DNA from: an uncultured Hormoscilla sp.
Lineage (GTDB): Bacteria; Cyanobacteriota; Cyanobacteriia; Cyanobacteriales; Desertifilaceae
DNA: 64,000 nt
Direction: 5' to 3'
NCBI GenBank assembly: GCA_963921275.4
Contig: OZ001293.3
Location: forward strand, 224,001-288,000
Part shown: in pieces, positions 5,974-34,305 of the stretch
Layout of the letters: the number at the start of each line of letters is the position of its first letter
How positions within the stretch are numbered: the first letter of the stretch is position 1
Notes under the pieces: generated by a model
Told to the model about the DNA's origin: nothing
What the model saw: the letters and a program-made list of their open reading frames with translations, nothing else
Database searches by the model: none
Translations under genes and position numbers: made by a program

Positions 5974-6087
5974 AAATTGTTGAAGAGAAAATTGAAGATT
6001 ATTGATGATGTCGATTCGCAATTCGCAATCCTACTGAGGTTTGTAGTGAGGACTTCCGTCCTCACTACAAACCTCAGAAAAATCGGG

Positions 6088-27322: not shown

Positions 27323-28190
27323 GTGCGATTCGTTCTAGCCTAACGTGGTCAAACACGGAACGCTAGCCCGGTTTCATTAGCCGGGAACTCTGACCGCATG
27401 GGGGTTAAATTCCCCTCCCCCCAGGTACGGGGGTGACACCGGTCCTCGGTGCTACGAAGCGACATCATCGTGGTGCTAAGCGAGGACTCAAATGTAGGAT
27501 AACTGGCAGCCTAAGCCGGTGACGCCGCTAGGAAAGATATCCAAGGTTAGAGCAGGCAAACATGTGCAAGCCTCGTTATAAGGAACCAGCGAAATAAGGC
27601 TATATGCGCTGGCCTAAAAAGGAAATGGTAGCTAGTATTAGTTTTAGACTCTGGCTAATATAGTACTCAAATAGCTCCCGGGGTATAGTGTGGACCTAAA
27701 GGTATCGCGAAATGTTGTTAGGGAACGAAGTAACCTCTCGTGTGCTGTCCATCAGGACAAGTTAGATGTTAAGCGCAAGCCACGGGGGGAGGGATGGCCC
27801 AAGAAGCGAATGCCCGGGGTAATTCCTGGGATAACATCTACAGTAATGTAGATGATGCTGGGTAGCCAGCGCTGACGTGGGTCGGTGATACTAGGAAGCT
27901 GCTGGAATGAGTAATCCTAAAAAGCCACGGAACTAATCCGAAACGCAAGTGGAGGATAAGGTATGGATAACTGGTAAAACTGACTTGAAAATGGTGATAC
28001 TAACGGTTATCAGAACAACCACTCGCTAAACCAGGAAAGGGAAGAAAAGACAGGCGGCAAGGGCTAACGGAAGTAATTCCTATTAAGTCTACCTATGAAA
28101 AGGGCCTAGTACCCAGTAGCCGATGCGGTGAAAATCGCAAGTCCGGTTCCTCAAGGGAGGGTCGGGAAGCGATTCCCGGCTCGACCCCAT
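27323..28190 (+). mobile_element. ORF-less group II intron, apparently full length (~868 nt)
   Basis: 5' GTGCGATTCG; D5 AGTAGCCGATGCGGTGAAAATCGCAAGTCCGGTTC; D6 ending CTCGACCCCAT; no RT ORF; exact 3' base uncertain. Confidence 0.9.
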
Positions 28191-28335
28191 CCTGAATCCC
28201 AGTTTTGATAACCTTAATTTCGATCGGAGTATGGTCTTCCGACCTGCTGAACCAATGACGATCTAAACTGTCAGGAGAGCGGCAGTAGGGTGAGCAGTGC
28301 CCATCCTACTTGGTTAATGGTGGGCGGTGCCCACC

Positions 28336-29649
28336 CTATTTGCTGTTCTTAAATCTTTTTTTTGTGGCCTGAAATGCTTCGGCCATTACTGCCTGTATTC
28401 TCTCCGGATCCGGTCTCTTTCCTCCCATTATGTCCCCAAAGTATACGCAGGCCCCCTCCCCTAATGCACCGGTGTACGCTGCTGCCCAACTGGCCGCGAT
28501 CGCACTCCCGAATCCTGGCACAAATTTGATTAATTCTCTCCCAATCGCCTGGGCTACAAATCCTCCCGCGATCGCACTTACTATTCCTCCTGCTTGCGAT
28601 CGAGTCAGGGTCTGGCCGTACAATTTCCCTAGCAGTCCTACCATTGATACTTGTAATGCCGTTAGGACCGGCATCGTCGCCAAGGGTAATGGCACTGCTG
28701 CTAGGGTGGCCGCGATCACGCAAAAGGCCAGTATGTAACGCCTCGCTACATCCCGGTACATATTGTCAATCTCGGCGATTGCTTCTCCATCTAATATTTG
28801 ATGTATTGCTTGCGCTTCCGCTTCCGGCAGCAGCTCGGCTATGCTATCTCTCAAGGCTTCTAATCCATAAAATACCGGATTGTATCCGTCCTCTTCTAAG
28901 GTGAAGTCCATTAATATTGCCCGATCGCACAGTTGCCCAAATTCCTCTACTATGGCCCCATAGGCCCGCTGGACTTCCTCGTACTCGGGGGGATATTCTG
29001 GATGAGCCTCCCGTGTCCCCTCTTTTGTGCGAGTAGCGCTCCCAGGAGACACAGAGATCCCGGCAGGATAGACTTCATGCAGGCAGGTTACTGCTAGCAG
29101 ACAGGGGATATGGGGATGTTTCTCTCGCAACTGCGTCCCTATTTGCCGCAAGCTCTCCGTGGCAAAATCGTTGATTTTTACTGTTAATATGAGAATCTTG
29201 GCCCGGCCACTCGCCTCTGATAGGTCCCCTAGCAGTTCCAAGACGATCGCCTCTGTCTCCTGGCCCACATCCCCCAGTCCCACTGTATCGGTAAAGATCA
29301 GCAGGGGCAACTCACTGGCAGGATAGGCATAGCGTTCTGTATGCTGGGTGTGGGGCCGAAACCCCTGGCCCACGATCTCCGCTGATACCCCCGTCAGGCC
29401 CCGGACGATGGAACTCTTCCCGGCCTGGGGTTTGCCGATCAAAATGGCCTCTGTGGTCGGTAGGGACCGCTCGACTCTCTCTAATATCTCTGCTACCCGA
29501 TCTTCCCTGACGCTAAACCACTCTACCATCCTCTGGGCTAGGCGATCGACTGGTAAGATTTTCCTCAAGCGTTCTGTAGTATGCTGCCAAACCCCACGCT
29601 TCTGACTCTCCTGCTTGGCATCAGGGTTTGCTTCCGGTTGCTCTGTCAT
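28336..29649 (-). CDS. GTPase with DUF697/YcjF-like C-terminal membrane domain
   Basis: GKPQAGKSS, DTVG; hydrophobic C-terminus AVPLP..KFVPGFGS. Confidence 0.8.
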   Translation of the reverse strand: MTEQPEANPDAKQESQKRGVWQHTTERLRKILPVDRLAQRMVEWFSVREDRVAEILERVERSLPTTEAILIGKPQAGKSSIVRGLTGVSAEIVGQGFRPHTQHTERYAYPASELPLLIFTDTVGLGDVGQETEAIVLELLGDLSEASGRAKILILTVKINDFATESLRQIGTQLREKHPHIPCLLAVTCLHEVYPAGISVSPGSATRTKEGTREAHPEYPPEYEEVQRAYGAIVEEFGQLCDRAILMDFTLEEDGYNPVFYGLEALRDSIAELLPEAEAQAIHQILDGEAIAEIDNMYRDVARRYILAFCVIAATLAAVPLPLATMPVLTALQVSMVGLLGKLYGQTLTRSQAGGIVSAIAGGFVAQAIGRELIKFVPGFGSAIAASWAAAYTGALGEGACVYFGDIMGGKRPDPERIQAVMAEAFQATKKRFKNSK

Positions 29650-29769
29650 CGGAATTCATGCCCCATCTCTTTATTCCTGATCCTGTATCTTATCCCATTA
29701 CATCAGCCCGATCGGATGATGGCCTATCCTCCCTGCTCCCTGCTGCCCGATACTGGCGTTACTTCTAAT

Positions 29770-30126
29770 GGCTCGCTTCGCTTTGCCCTTTTCTAGCAGG
29801 CGATCGCAAAATGCCTTAATCACAGGGTTAAAACGCCGAGCTGACATGGCTGGCATATACAATGCCTTGCGAAGCTTAGCATTACCGGTTTTACACAGAC
29901 GTGTTTTGCCTCTAACCGTTGAGCCAGAAACCTGCTGCCTTGGTGTGACCCCAGCATGAGCAGACACGAGACTCGCACTATCGTAAGTGCCAATCTCTAC
30001 TGAGGTTTGTAGTTTAGCTGCTGTCAGCTCACCTACACCGGGAATCGATAGGAGCAACTTCTGCTGGTGCTTCAGATTCTCATGAGTATCTATTAGCTCA
30101 GTAATGAGCTGTTTGATTTGCTCAAT
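29770..30126 (-). pseudogene. IS110-family recombinase, C-terminal (Tnp) domain remnant
   Basis: LLLSIPGVGELTA, AHAGVTP..QVSGS..GKTRLCKTGNAKLRKALYMPA; N-terminal DEDD domain absent. Confidence 0.88.
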
Positions 30127-30192
30127 CTGTCCATAGTTTAATGCCTTGTTGCTGTTAGTCATAGAGGATCTCCTGTTAAGTGATTAGTTTTA

Positions 30193-30861
30193 TTATTTTT
30201 GTATATTGCACAACTGCTCTGCCCATTCAAGGTTTTTAACATGAGCAAAGTATGTTTTATCTGTTACAGCACCTATATCGCGCTTGCTCCAGATATTCAC
30301 TGCATAATCATCCAGCCAAAATTCTTCTCGCTCCAACACATCCGCCGGCAACACTTCTGCCCAAAGTAGCTCATCGTTGGGAGTATCTACTTTGACCTTA
30401 AAGCTGCTCTCCATCGCGCTTATCCACTCATGGCAAGCATAATATACGCCGCAATTCACAGTAGCCCAATAATTAGGTATTCGGATAAATTTTGGTGTCC
30501 TGTTTTTGCGGCACATATCTGTAAATGCCTTATCAGGAAATTGAAGCATTACAGTATCCCAATCTACCCACAAAAACTCTCCAAATTCTTTCAACGCCCA
30601 AAGACACATCCAATGCTTCATCATATGTGCCATATTCTGTTGCACATATTCTGGTGCATCGTCAAAAATACGGTATACGTTAAGGTTAAACCCGGCAAGC
30701 TGCGCTGCTGACTCTTGGTTACCGGCGAGGACATAAAGAGCCTTTTTGTATAGCGGGTTAATTTCAATACTCTGAGGAATCTCTTTCAAAGTAACGTCCG
30801 CCGTACTGGCGACTCCGCCGCGCACATACGGATACAGCCCTGCAATCATCGGAATCGACAT
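30193..30861 (-). CDS. Hypothetical protein, GT-A-fold nucleotide-sugar transferase-like
   Basis: K..FLWVDWD (DxD), VNCGVYY, NDE, late His (FAHVK). Confidence 0.55.
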   Translation of the reverse strand: MSIPMIAGLYPYVRGGVASTADVTLKEIPQSIEINPLYKKALYVLAGNQESAAQLAGFNLNVYRIFDDAPEYVQQNMAHMMKHWMCLWALKEFGEFLWVDWDTVMLQFPDKAFTDMCRKNRTPKFIRIPNYWATVNCGVYYACHEWISAMESSFKVKVDTPNDELLWAEVLPADVLEREEFWLDDYAVNIWSKRDIGAVTDKTYFAHVKNLEWAEQLCNIQK

Positions 30862-31496
30862 GCAATCTCCTCAGCCTCCTCAGCGACTCCATAATCTTCA
30901 ATAACAACATTTTTGTGTCGTGCAATCATCTCAAGACGCATTTCATAGCTTTGCGACTTAAATATCTGCCAAATTTCGGCTTCTTCTTCTGGCGGACTGG
31001 AAAATCCAAGCTCATTGGCATAGCGTCGCATGCGCGACAAGGTGGCTAAGGCATATTGCCAATTAACTAGTGGTTTGAGCAGAAGTATTTTTCGCTGACG
31101 CACAGATTTTTTAGCAAGCGAATGAATAAATCCTCGTAAATCCCCGCCCGGAATATGTTCAACGCCAATAGCCGACAGCGCCACATCAAATTTATTGACA
31201 CGTTCTTCTAATGAAGGATACCTAGTTTTATGCGCAATTTCAACTACGCGCCCGTTAATTTTATAAACATTTGAAAAGGCTTTCTGTTCCAATGCCACTG
31301 CATTTCGCTGCTTCAGAGAGAAAACAAGTTCTTCTTTATCTGCGGCCCAGATGTCAATATCTCTTGGGGGCTTGCCGGTTAAAAGTGATTTATACGCTCC
31401 GCCCGCAATAAAAAACCTGACATTAACTGCCCCTTTGCCTAAAATAGCGGCTATTTCTTTTTCTGCATAACGCATAATCTCAAACTCCCTTAGCAT
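30846..31496 (-). CDS. Nucleotidyltransferase of the CCA/poly(A) polymerase head-domain type
   Basis: FIAGGA..L.G..PRDIDI, FD, R..RY; RBS AAGGAG upstream; overlaps the next gene. Confidence 0.65.
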   Translation of the reverse strand: MLREFEIMRYAEKEIAAILGKGAVNVRFFIAGGAYKSLLTGKPPRDIDIWAADKEELVFSLKQRNAVALEQKAFSNVYKINGRVVEIAHKTRYPSLEERVNKFDVALSAIGVEHIPGGDLRGFIHSLAKKSVRQRKILLLKPLVNWQYALATLSRMRRYANELGFSSPPEEEAEIWQIFKSQSYEMRLEMIARHKNVVIEDYGVAEEAEEIACRFR

Positions 31497-31634
31497 TTTA
31501 ACTCTCCTTTGTATCAGCAGAAACTTTTAGGGCAGGTAGATTCATATGGCCTCTTTTCCTTGACTGGCGATTTGATCTGAGTTGACTGGTGATGTTATCA
31601 GTTGAGACCGGTACAGGGTAGAGATGTTTTACCA

Positions 31635-31820
31635 GTAACCATCCTTGTAAATACGAGTTCATCTGTGTTACAGAGACTCCCGATCCCATTCGGTTGTCTA
31701 GCAAAAACAGTAAGCAGTCTGGGTCTCGATCTGCGCGACAGGTTCAATTGACCTCTGGCGGGCTACGGACTTATCGATAGCTTTCTACCCTGATGTCTGT
31801 TCTCTATTCCAACATACAAG
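31635..31820 (-). ncRNA. Putative IS110 (IS621-type) left end encoding a bridge RNA
   Basis: End CTTGTAT; loop motifs CCGT-AGCCCGCCA..AACCTG-TCGCGCAG-AT and AACCGA-ATGGGATCG..CGTAT-TTACAAGG-ATGGTT; same orientation as the IS110 remnant. Confidence 0.8.
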
Positions 31821-31903
31821 GCGGACTTTGTTTGTGTAGCCCTACCCTTTAGGGTAGGGGCGTGGGCGTGGGGGCGCGAATTTTACTCCTACAAGTCCCA
31901 AGT

Positions 31904-33396
31904 TCAAAAATAAAAATAGATATAGGGTAAACCGCCTTGGGGGGCAAGATGCCAAACAGTATAGAGACAAATGGGGACCAATAGCAGCTTGAGAGGCCAG
32001 TTAAGTTGCAACTCGAGCAGTCGGTGTAAAACAAATAAGCAGAACATGCCGAGGAAGAGGAGTCCCAGTAACAAAGCGAATTGTAAGCGATCGAGCCCCA
32101 TACTGTCCAGATAGACTTTCTGAGCAAACTGAACATCAGCAGTATATCCCCAAAGATGTTGGAGAACCCAACCCGAGTCTGGTAAAGAAGGCAAGCGGAA
32201 AAAGATCCAGGCAGTAAACACCATAGCTTGAGTGAGTGCCCAAGCCAATATTACCCCAGGAAAGCTGTGCCAGAGAGAGTTCGGTCCGGAGATCGCTTCT
32301 GTAATCCGATGCACTACCAAAGCCATACCGTGAAGTAGGCCCCAGACAATAAAGCCCCAAGCTGCGCCGTGCCAAATGCCCGCGATCGCCATGACGATCA
32401 GTAAATTGAGGCAAGTAGAGGCCAAACCGCGCCGGGAACCGCCGAGAGGGAAATAGAGATAGTTGCGCAACCAATCCCCCAAACTCATGTGCCAGCGCCG
32501 CCAGAAATCCGCAATACTGGTACTAAAGTAAGGATAGTCAAAATTTGCGGGCAAATGTAAGCCGAACAAGATGGCACTACCCCGGACAATATCTACATAG
32601 CCACTAAAATCCAGATATAGTTGCAAGCCATAGGCCAAGGTAGCCAACCAGAGGTCGCCGCTACCAGCCCGGACCAGATTATCAAAGCATAAAGTGACGA
32701 AAATTACTAGTCGATCGGCTACAAGAACTTTTTTGGCCGCCCCAAAGGCGATCGACCACAAAGCTTCGGCCACCAACTGAGCATTAGGAAAGCGCAAACT
32801 TGCCCATTAACTAGCGAACTGATGATAGGGAGTAATGGGCCAGAAATGAGTTTAAGAAAGAATAGCTTATAGGCAGCAAAGGGGAGAAACCCCTGAGCTG
32901 CCGGGGCCCCCCGATAGACATCAATTAGGTAAGCAATGGACTCAAAGCTAAAGAAACTCAGACCCAAAGGTGCGATCGGATGATCGGCGATCCAGTTTAC
33001 CATTTTTTGGGGAATGGGCGAATCTAGTAGGGGTTGAAGTGATGAGAACAGAAAGGGTAAATATTTGAAGCCCAGCAGTAGCAGCACATTCAATATAATC
33101 CCCAAGATCAGGAGTACCCAGTCCCAGTCTAACTTAGTAAAGGCTGCATTCTTTGACTCCGAAGCAGCACTCTCCCCCGATCCACGATACCCCATCAATC
33201 GTCCTAAGCCAAAATTTATGAATGCGATCGCCAGCAGCAAGGGAACATACTGTACTTGCCAAAAGGCGTAAAAGGCCAAACTAGCAATTAGGACGATCCA
33301 GAGTCGCCAGTTTGGGCGCGGCACAGACCAGTAAATTCCGCCAGCAAGCAGCAAGAACATGCCATAGGCGATCGAAGTCAAGCTCATAATCAGCAA
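31904..33396 (-). pseudogene. MBOAT family O-acyltransferase (AlgI/DltB-like), frameshifted near 32800
   Basis: PLGLSFFSF..ISGP in one frame; DFSGY, FWRRWHMSL, GIWHGA in another. Confidence 0.85.
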
Positions 33397-33728
33397 TTCA
33401 AAATTCTCTCATTCAAAATTATTGCATTGGGAAAAGCATCCTCCCCGGTTGGGGTTCGTGCCGAAATCCAACGGTCGGTTGCTGCTATGAGACCCCGCGC
33501 AGGCGGTTGCCAAGCTGTGCAGCCATGCGACAATTGCTTTGTTCATGTAGCCCCACCCTTTAGGGTGGGTGCGGCTACGATGTCCTCCAAGCATCGAAGC
33601 TTTCTCCAGACATCAAGTTCCCAGGAGGCGTCGAGTTTCCCCGAGACATCAAGCTGGACCGGGAACATCGAGCGTGCTTTAGACATCGAAGCCAAAGCGC
33701 CCCTTAATGATAGATATACTCGATCGTG

Positions 33729-33853
33729 GAATAACTGAGTTATTCCTTGGGGTAACTCAGTTATTCCAAGGAATAAATGCTCAGTTCCTGAAGTAACTAT
33801 TTACTTCCTCGAGTAACTGAGTCATTCCCTGGAGCAACTGGGTCATTCCCTGG
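33729..33853. repeat. Degenerate 21-bp tandem repeat (~6 copies)
   Basis: GTAACTGAGTCATTCCCTGGA-like units. Confidence 0.6.
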
Positions 33854-33974
33854 CGGTACAATGCTTTGCTTTGACGTGAAACAATGTTACCAAGGGCGAT
33901 ACGAGTCTCAGGCCGGAACAAGTCCCTCCAAGGCCGGAGTCAAAGTCTCTGCCTTCGCTCTTATCCCAGTCGGC

Positions 33975-34305
33975 AAGCGATCGTGGTGTCCTCCGAAAAA
34001 ATATGCAGCAACTAATCCGACTGTCATCACTTCGGCATTGTTCATTTTTACTTGTGGATCTTCTTTTATATTTAACGCTTTTAGTAGCTCGTCACAAAGA
34101 ACAAAAATTGTTGTAATCATATCTTCCATCATCTACATCCCCCAGCAATTAACTATTATTTTAGTACATTATAACCTATAAACAGCCAACCCGCCGTCTA
34201 GCACAAAAAAAATATAATTTTGTATCAAAAGCTACGAAATATCCCAAATATCTGTAAAGTCTAAGTGGGTAATTCATATTTTTTTTAATAGGTCGCAACT
34301 TAGGT
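33975..34305 (-). mobile_element. IS982-family remnant (left end plus transposase N-terminus)
   Basis: ITTIFVLCDELLK..KMNNAEVMTV; end ACCTAAGTTGCGACCT. Confidence 0.6.

Follow-up and report, generated by a model that had tools for sequence, protein, structure and literature searches.

The window analysed here is a 64,000-nucleotide stretch of the genome of an uncultured sponge-symbiont cyanobacterium of the genus Hormoscilla (G000:C1:224001-288000, G000 being this genome). Its minus strand carries a relic of an insertion sequence (IS) of the IS110 family, made up, in order, of the IS110 left end (~31819-31530), a 1.4-kb insert and an internal piece of the recombinase gene (30134-29766). The insert holds two overlapping open reading frames (ORFs), named A and B, which encode a nucleotidyltransferase domain protein and a glycosyltransferase-like protein, respectively. 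Three sister genomes (G002, G003 and G004) and a more distant congener of ~82% identity (G001) were used for comparison. With the IS110 family (bridge-RNA-guided DEDD recombinases) the locus shares a left-end non-coding region of ~270 nt located 5′ of the recombinase start, a Transposase_20 segment and a REP-like neighbour; it differs from the family by the absence of the DEDD domain, of the last ~34 recombinase codons and of the right end, and by the presence of 1.4 kb of unrelated DNA. The locus is thus an IS110 relic and not a member of the family capable of transposition.

The non-coding region of the left end (31546..31819, minus strand) showed 82–89% identity to the left ends of six other copies of the element, starting from TTGTATGTTGG. 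In IS110-type elements the bridge RNA is encoded in this region. A scan of positions 28000-34000 against Rfam (E<=1) gave no bridge-RNA-like family; besides a sub-threshold group II intron piece, described below, the only matches were two chance snoRNA ones. The aligned copies turn alike at TTGTATGTTGG (31819), beside a dispersed REP-like repeat (31819..31878), which accounts for most of 55 matches found in the same genome; variants of the repeat flank other IS copies, and it is the probable insertion target. The start codon of the recombinase gene was located at 31545-31543 by alignment with the copies that have no extra insert, which read MNLPALGIDIAKD at this place. Homology of the left end to these copies stops after codon 5 of the recombinase, between 31530 and 31529, and the start codon with the five codons runs into the insert to form a leader ORF of 15 codons (31498..31545, minus strand), whose stop codon (31500-31498) is separated from the ATG of ORF A by 1 nt.

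Homology to the recombinase gene resumes at ~30139-30134, where ATGG is common to both sides of the junction. The internal segment of the gene (29766..30134, minus strand) was 85–88% identical to intact and degenerate copies and includes neither the gene's 3′ terminus nor the right end of the element: homology ends at ~29766 after ...KRAI, ~100 nt short of the stop codon, with the last ~34 C-terminal codons absent, whereas intact copies continue for ~135 nt past this point to their common end. The stretch that was replaced amounts to ~0.5 kb, or codons ~6-170 of the recombinase, and comprises the whole DEDD domain. The segment forms part of a chimeric ORF, T (29698..30162, minus strand; 154 amino acids), which is composed of ~9 insert-derived codons, the Transposase_20 segment and a tail derived from outside the IS, and which is preceded by AGGAG 8 nt before its ATG. 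The product of T matched PF02371 (Transposase_20) at 2.3e-20 and 73.2 bits over profile positions 2-85 of 87 and the NCBIfam profile transpos_IS110 over positions 199-323 of 343 only, and gave no match to PF01548 (DEDD, RuvC-like). T is a pseudogene; it has extra stops in G002, and in G003 a deletion of 10 nt and another inserted repeat, at which the contig ends. A first-pass annotation, made from the sequence letters only, had described here a C-terminal recombinase remnant on the same strand, a third gene start with AGGAG at 30162 fused in frame to it, a replaced DEDD domain and a missing right end, and the mapping bore out all four points. The bridge-RNA end that it had placed at 31635 is putative, no Rfam family having matched there.

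The insert itself (30135..31529, minus strand) is 1395 nt long, whereas intact copies have 499–544 nt between the same two points, and a search of G000 found it in a single copy. The two overlapping intact ORFs that had been noticed between the left end and the recombinase tail were confirmed as A and B. The GC content of the insert was 42.6%, as compared with 47.4% for the genome, so that it falls within the lowest 9.6% of genomic windows of this length, and HIP1 sites are absent from it, as they are from 43% of such windows. The first-pass annotation was therefore correct in calling the insert AT-richer and devoid of HIP1, but neither figure is significant alone, and the composition agrees only weakly with a foreign origin. 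The whole locus was 97–98% identical, with the same junctions, in G002:C6 and G004:C43. In addition, Logan contigs from four public sequencing runs belonging to two studies bridged both junctions in each run, over 30097-31564 (X1, X4) or 29400-31564 (X5, X6). An assembly chimera, which the first-pass annotation had named as one way in which its observation might fail, was ruled out by the junctions in the two sister genomes together with the Logan contigs. Both junctions fall within the recombinase gene, and one coincides with a microhomology of 4 nt; they therefore look like products of illegitimate recombination rather than of bridge-RNA-guided recombination at the IS ends.

ORF A (30846..31496, minus strand; 216 amino acids) starts with an ATG located 49 nt downstream of the recombinase start codon and has its own AAGGAG. 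The AlphaFold2 model of its product, built from an alignment of 19 sequences, had a mean predicted local distance difference test (pLDDT) value of 91.5. A Foldseek search with this model returned 55 matches in the Protein Data Bank (PDB) at E<=0.001, with CCA-adding enzymes at TM 0.59-0.65 and probability 1.00 (4wc2_A at 6e-10); the model matched many phage nucleotidyltransferases as well. The GG...RDIDI motif is present, and G32/G33, R45, D46, D48 and D104 were invariant or nearly so. By sequence, the match to phrog_1614 ("nucleotidyltransferase") was at 1.6e-7, with phrog_4400 likewise at ~1e-7, the match to PF01743 (PolyA_pol) was below threshold (14.1 vs 23 bits, E 0.062), the best PDB sequence match was 1miv at E 0.013, and NCBIfam gave nothing near threshold. 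These data agree with the initial assignment of A to the nucleotidyltransferases of the CCA/poly(A)-polymerase-head type, the carboxylates of the GG...DxD motif being kept. With the class-II nucleotidyltransferases (CCA-adding enzymes and the head of poly(A) polymerase) A shares the fold, the GG...RDxD motif and the PHROGs of phage nucleotidyltransferases; it differs from them in having only 216 residues and neither a tRNA-binding body nor tail domains, and in that most of its relatives carry a fused histidine phosphatase and are encoded in a glycosyltransferase operon. Among 24 homologues of A, five carry a precomputed match to PF26128, which is Gad2 by its Atlas name and has a share of 11–97% in the clusters nearest to A, part of which are viral. 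According to the preprint by Yirmiya et al., Gad2 is a 400-residue phage anti-Gabija protein with a predicted nucleotidyltransferase domain, and by that account it is considerably longer than A with its 216 residues.

ORF B (30193..30861, minus strand; 222 amino acids) overlaps A by 16 nt and encodes a DxD glycosyltransferase-like protein of the GT-A fold. The AlphaFold2 model, obtained from an alignment of 31 sequences, had a mean pLDDT of 92.5, and Foldseek matched it to A64R of PBCV-1 (2p6w) at 7e-8, to glycogenin at 1e-5 (TM 0.54-0.59) and also to LARGE1. The DxD motif, D100-W-D102, was invariant, and the mean column identity among 216 homologues reached 65%. The DxD GT-A-like protein of the first-pass annotation is thus upheld by fold and motif. 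The best Pfam match, Mannosyl_trans3, was below threshold (14.2 vs 22 bits, E 0.028), as was the best NCBIfam match (13.6 vs 250 bits), and no match was obtained in a sequence search of the PDB or in PHROGs. B therefore has the GT-A fold and the DxD motif in common with the retaining GT-A glycosyltransferases (the N-terminal domain of A64R, glycogenin/GT8 and the GT8 domain of LARGE1), but it falls below every Pfam glycosyltransferase threshold and differs also by its very high conservation across phyla.

When genome_contigs was scanned with B, 28 loci were recovered, two of them, 97–98% identical at the protein level, in metagenome-assembled genomes (MAGs) of Hormoscilla sp. A search of the gene neighbourhood of the pair, as the first-pass annotation had advised, showed that A immediately precedes B at 26 of the 28 loci (the exceptions being L029 and the partial L039), so that the two genes do co-occur elsewhere. 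Outside Hormoscilla, A directly preceded B in 24 of 26 loci, and the overlap of the two genes is conserved in the operon. In 24 of these 26 the pair was itself preceded by genes for a fusion of a family GT4 glycosyltransferase with a radical SAM/SPASM enzyme (GT4-rSAM; ~780-810 amino acids) and for a protein of WG repeats and an O-methyltransferase (WG-OMT; ~555 amino acids), and in nine loci also by a gene for an NAD-dependent epimerase/dehydratase. Among the 26 loci encoding A, it was the C-terminal half of a His_Phos_1 fusion of ~440 amino acids in 18, and the histidine phosphatase was a separate frame in three. The remaining five, of which two are in the Hormoscilla MAGs, two in Longimicrobium and one on a short contig, gave no histidine phosphatase match. 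Operon or pair was found in Myxococcota, Gammaproteobacteria, 'Rickettsiales' MAGs, Planctomycetota, Gemmatimonadota (Longimicrobium), Latescibacterota and other groups, with B ~60% identical across these phyla; the operon loci are L014-L038, for example L016:598-6693 and L015:571-6684, the latter from a cultured Polyangium isolate. Judging by gene order, A and B close a conserved operon of four to five genes at its 3′ end. This operon (GT4-rSAM, WG-OMT, histidine phosphatase-nucleotidyltransferase and GT-A glycosyltransferase) is tightly conserved and apparently undescribed, and a full-text search of the literature for its gene combination returned nothing relevant. B was found in none of 400 other cyanobacterial genomes, which argues that the insert was acquired horizontally. 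Elsewhere the two genes co-occurred as the 3′ terminus of the operon and not between IS110 ends, and no other IS110 copy examined carries the cassette.

Of the four operon genes only A and B are present at the relic. The genes for GT4-rSAM and WG-OMT were found in G000 at C1:3015155-3010631 (~3.01 Mb), 2.76 Mb from the window, with the GT4-rSAM gene (3015155-3012573) split into ORFs of 158, 627 and 125 amino acids, possibly through an assembly error; the histidine phosphatase domain was not found in this genome. In G002, G003 and G004 GT4-rSAM is a single frame of 803–806 amino acids, and both genes showed a ratio of nonsynonymous to synonymous divergence (pN/pS) of 0.21-0.36 in the sister genomes, indicative of purifying selection. 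This half of the operon is retained in four of the five genomes of the genus, neither half having been found in G001. It has a GC content of 52% and nine HIP1 sites, as compared with 42.6% and none in the insert, and its synonymous divergence between strains was 0.035-0.065 vs ~0.004-0.015 for A and B. As GC content, HIP1 content and synonymous divergence all differ, the two halves may have different histories, and the same three features disfavour an origin of the insert as the displaced tail of the resident half-operon.

Synonymous and nonsynonymous differences in A and B taken together numbered 2 and 13 between G000 and G002, 1 and 9 between G000 and G004, and 1 and 8 between G002 and G004, these three pairs, with 9–15 substitutions each, being mutually non-independent. 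A binomial test against pN/pS = 0.25 gave p = 0.0014, and Fisher tests gave p = 0.012 in comparison with a flanking host gene for a GTPase with DUF697 (28336..29649, minus strand; Pfam MMR_HSR1 and DUF697; pN/pS 0.20-0.32), which served as a selection control, and p = 0.024 in comparison with GT4-rSAM. For 16 other ORFs of the window pN/pS relative to G002 ranged from 0.10 to 0.91, the two highest values (0.83, 0.91) including the split MBOAT gene described below. In G000, A also lacks 9 nt, encoding PSA of a conserved WAPSxxDR stretch, which are kept in the sister genomes and in three of the four runs (X4-X6). The synonymous divergence from G002 was ~0.00-0.015 over 30193-32797, 0.02-0.12 in neighbouring genes and 0.085 in T, as would be expected if a tract of recent recombination ended close to the junction of insert and tail.

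All five copies of the relic's IS in G000 were partial or degenerate. The stretch 31841-31529 recurs twice in the genome and 30134-29766 once, at 88%; smaller pieces occur at other places. Of the copies, that at 5.775 Mb consists of the left end and ~15 codons, and that at 6.451 Mb (C1:6451588-6452087) is a miniature deletion derivative in which the left end and eight codons are joined to the last part of the recombinase; at 1.850 Mb there is a DEDD region with two TAG codons and no matching left end, and at 6.148 Mb a set of tail fragments. A search of G000 with PF01548 gave one match, which contains two in-frame TAG codons. Fuller copies were present in the sister genomes (G003:C154, G004:C23 and G002:C3), and that of G003:C154 has an open frame of 397 amino acids. 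A palindromic mini-element of 50 nt, with 29 BLAST matches in the genome, one of them in the window at 6033-6082, was observed in three of five IS copies (L051, which is G003:C154, L050 and L053) within 1 nt of the place where the foreign insert begins in the relic; in these three copies it shifts the start codon of the recombinase.

Taken together, the relic is probably immobile, with a piece of a foreign operon in place of its catalytic part, and A and B are probably drifting leftovers and not working cargo. An IS110-type element would have inserted beside the REP-like repeat downstream of the MBOAT gene. It would then have lost ~0.5 kb of its recombinase gene (codons ~6-170), with 1.4 kb of horizontally acquired DNA taking the place of this stretch, and would also have lost the last ~34 recombinase codons and the right end. 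In the native operon A and B presumably work with the GT4-radical SAM/SPASM enzyme and the WG-repeat-O-methyltransferase, as folds and gene context suggest; the substrate may be a phosphorylated sugar-derived metabolite or a glycoconjugate; A would act on it by nucleotidyl transfer, and B would attach a sugar donated by an NDP-sugar. Any transcription of A and B at the relic would come from the IS left end, as A occupies the place where the recombinase formerly started. The genes are most likely vestigial, drifting remnants, since the substitutions in them are mainly amino-acid-changing although the ORFs are open. Several observations weigh against this interpretation. Both ORFs are uninterrupted in all three genomes that hold the insert, and both structural models are confident; the selection test depends on few substitutions in pairs that share genomes; and the region is unusually alike between strains, with a synonymous divergence (pS) of ~0.007 vs 0.02-0.12 nearby, which suggests recent recombination. 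At such low divergence open frames are expected by chance, yet decay is not provable either.

The intact frames also speak for an alternative in which A and B still work, the left end of the dead IS serving as their promoter and leader and their products acting in trans with the GT4-rSAM and WG-OMT encoded at 3.01 Mb. The geometry permits expression, which again weighs against decay, as a single nucleotide separates the leader stop from the ATG of A, which has its own AAGGAG; so does the partner half, which is intact and under purifying selection in the sister genomes and kept in four of five genomes. Moreover, A is found as a gene of its own in other taxa too. Such a divided pathway is nevertheless unlikely: nonsynonymous changes dominate in A and B, A of G000 has lost three residues from a conserved stretch, the histidine phosphatase domain was not found in G000, where GT4-rSAM is in three ORFs (an assembly error being possible), and the differences in GC and HIP1 argue for separate histories of the halves. 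A scan for promoters and terminators was uninformative, with 3 and 4 sites vs 4.6 and 2.4 in shuffled sequences. The fuller proposal that the dead left end now serves as a co-opted platform for expression, supplying promoter, ribosome-binding site, five codons and the 15-codon leader, and that the pair completes a split glyco-modification pathway in trans, appears less likely still. A role in phage-host conflict, in which A, akin to Gad2, and B, akin to phage glycosyltransferases, would modify nucleic acid or nucleotides, is consistent with the PF26128 matches of five of the 24 A homologues, with the partly viral Atlas clusters nearest to A, the viral ones nearest to B and the PHROG matches of A (phrog_1614 and phrog_4400, ~1e-7), and with the match of the operon's GT4 partner to PF20706 (GT4-conflict). 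We consider it very improbable, given that the conserved context is that of a chromosomal operon resembling a biosynthetic one, that among 50,697 phage records A matched a single one, with 27.7% identity, and that none of 14 pattern matches for B in a scan of viral_contigs was confirmed. PADLOC gave no match for A, B or T, and the sole conflict link for the anti-phage activity mentioned in the first-pass annotation is the Gad2 Pfam label on relatives of A.

That annotation had also offered two histories for the locus, a non-autonomous bridge-RNA element whose cargo is delivered to REP sites by an IS110 recombinase acting in trans, and a foreign insertion or deletion that inactivated the IS. 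The former could draw on the conserved left end and on the intact 397-residue recombinase frame in the sister G003:C154, and cargo-bearing expanded IS110 elements have been reported in a preprint (Hu et al., bioRxiv 2026, 10.64898/2026.08.14.744561). As described in the accessible part of that preprint, those elements resemble the relic in that non-IS genes are physically tied to IS110 sequence, but they keep the recombinase and yield excision intermediates, whereas in the relic the cargo replaces the catalytic domain and one end is gone. A cargo element would have two functional ends and give evidence of movement; here there is no right end and the recombinase gene is truncated at its 3′ end, the insert is single-copy and is found at one and the same locus in G000, G002 and G004, the junctions are within the recombinase ORF and not at the IS termini, and G000 yielded no functional DEDD domain, its only match containing stops. 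A search for excision or movement joints in the four runs, which covered contigs only and is therefore weak, gave three single-contig skips whose shorter side was 25–27 nt, none of them at an element boundary. Delivery in trans can thus hardly be credited, and the second history, an inactivating foreign insertion or deletion, fits the evidence. Nothing was found in support of mobility, in line with the earlier remark that the missing right end argues against it. For IS110 and bridge-RNA biology the result would be a negative one, as the locus does not appear to be a natural recombinase-less element mobilised in trans, and it illustrates that an IS relic beside foreign DNA can mimic a cargo-carrying IS110 element. 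Of greater interest as a lead is the uncharacterised operon, whose study would be possible in a cultured carrier, for example Polyangium (L015).

On the other side of the REP-like repeat lies the MBOAT gene (31904..33396, minus strand; MBOAT at 7.9e-23), which is divided into two overlapping ORFs, 33396-32719 (225 amino acids) and 32797-31904 (297 amino acids), the C-terminal part having a pN/pS of 0.91. It is probably a frameshifted pseudogene. Beyond the GTPase gene, the stretch 28115-28190 (plus strand) matched RF00029, a group II intron family, below threshold (32.2 vs 40 bits, E 0.0017). An empty site was not found in G001, where the two flanks are on different contigs (L058, L059) beside other regions: the sequence that follows on the MBOAT side is homologous to G000 at 2.786 Mb, and that on the GTPase side to G000 at 0.04 Mb. 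Because the flanks continue into different regions, the relic lies at a synteny breakpoint.

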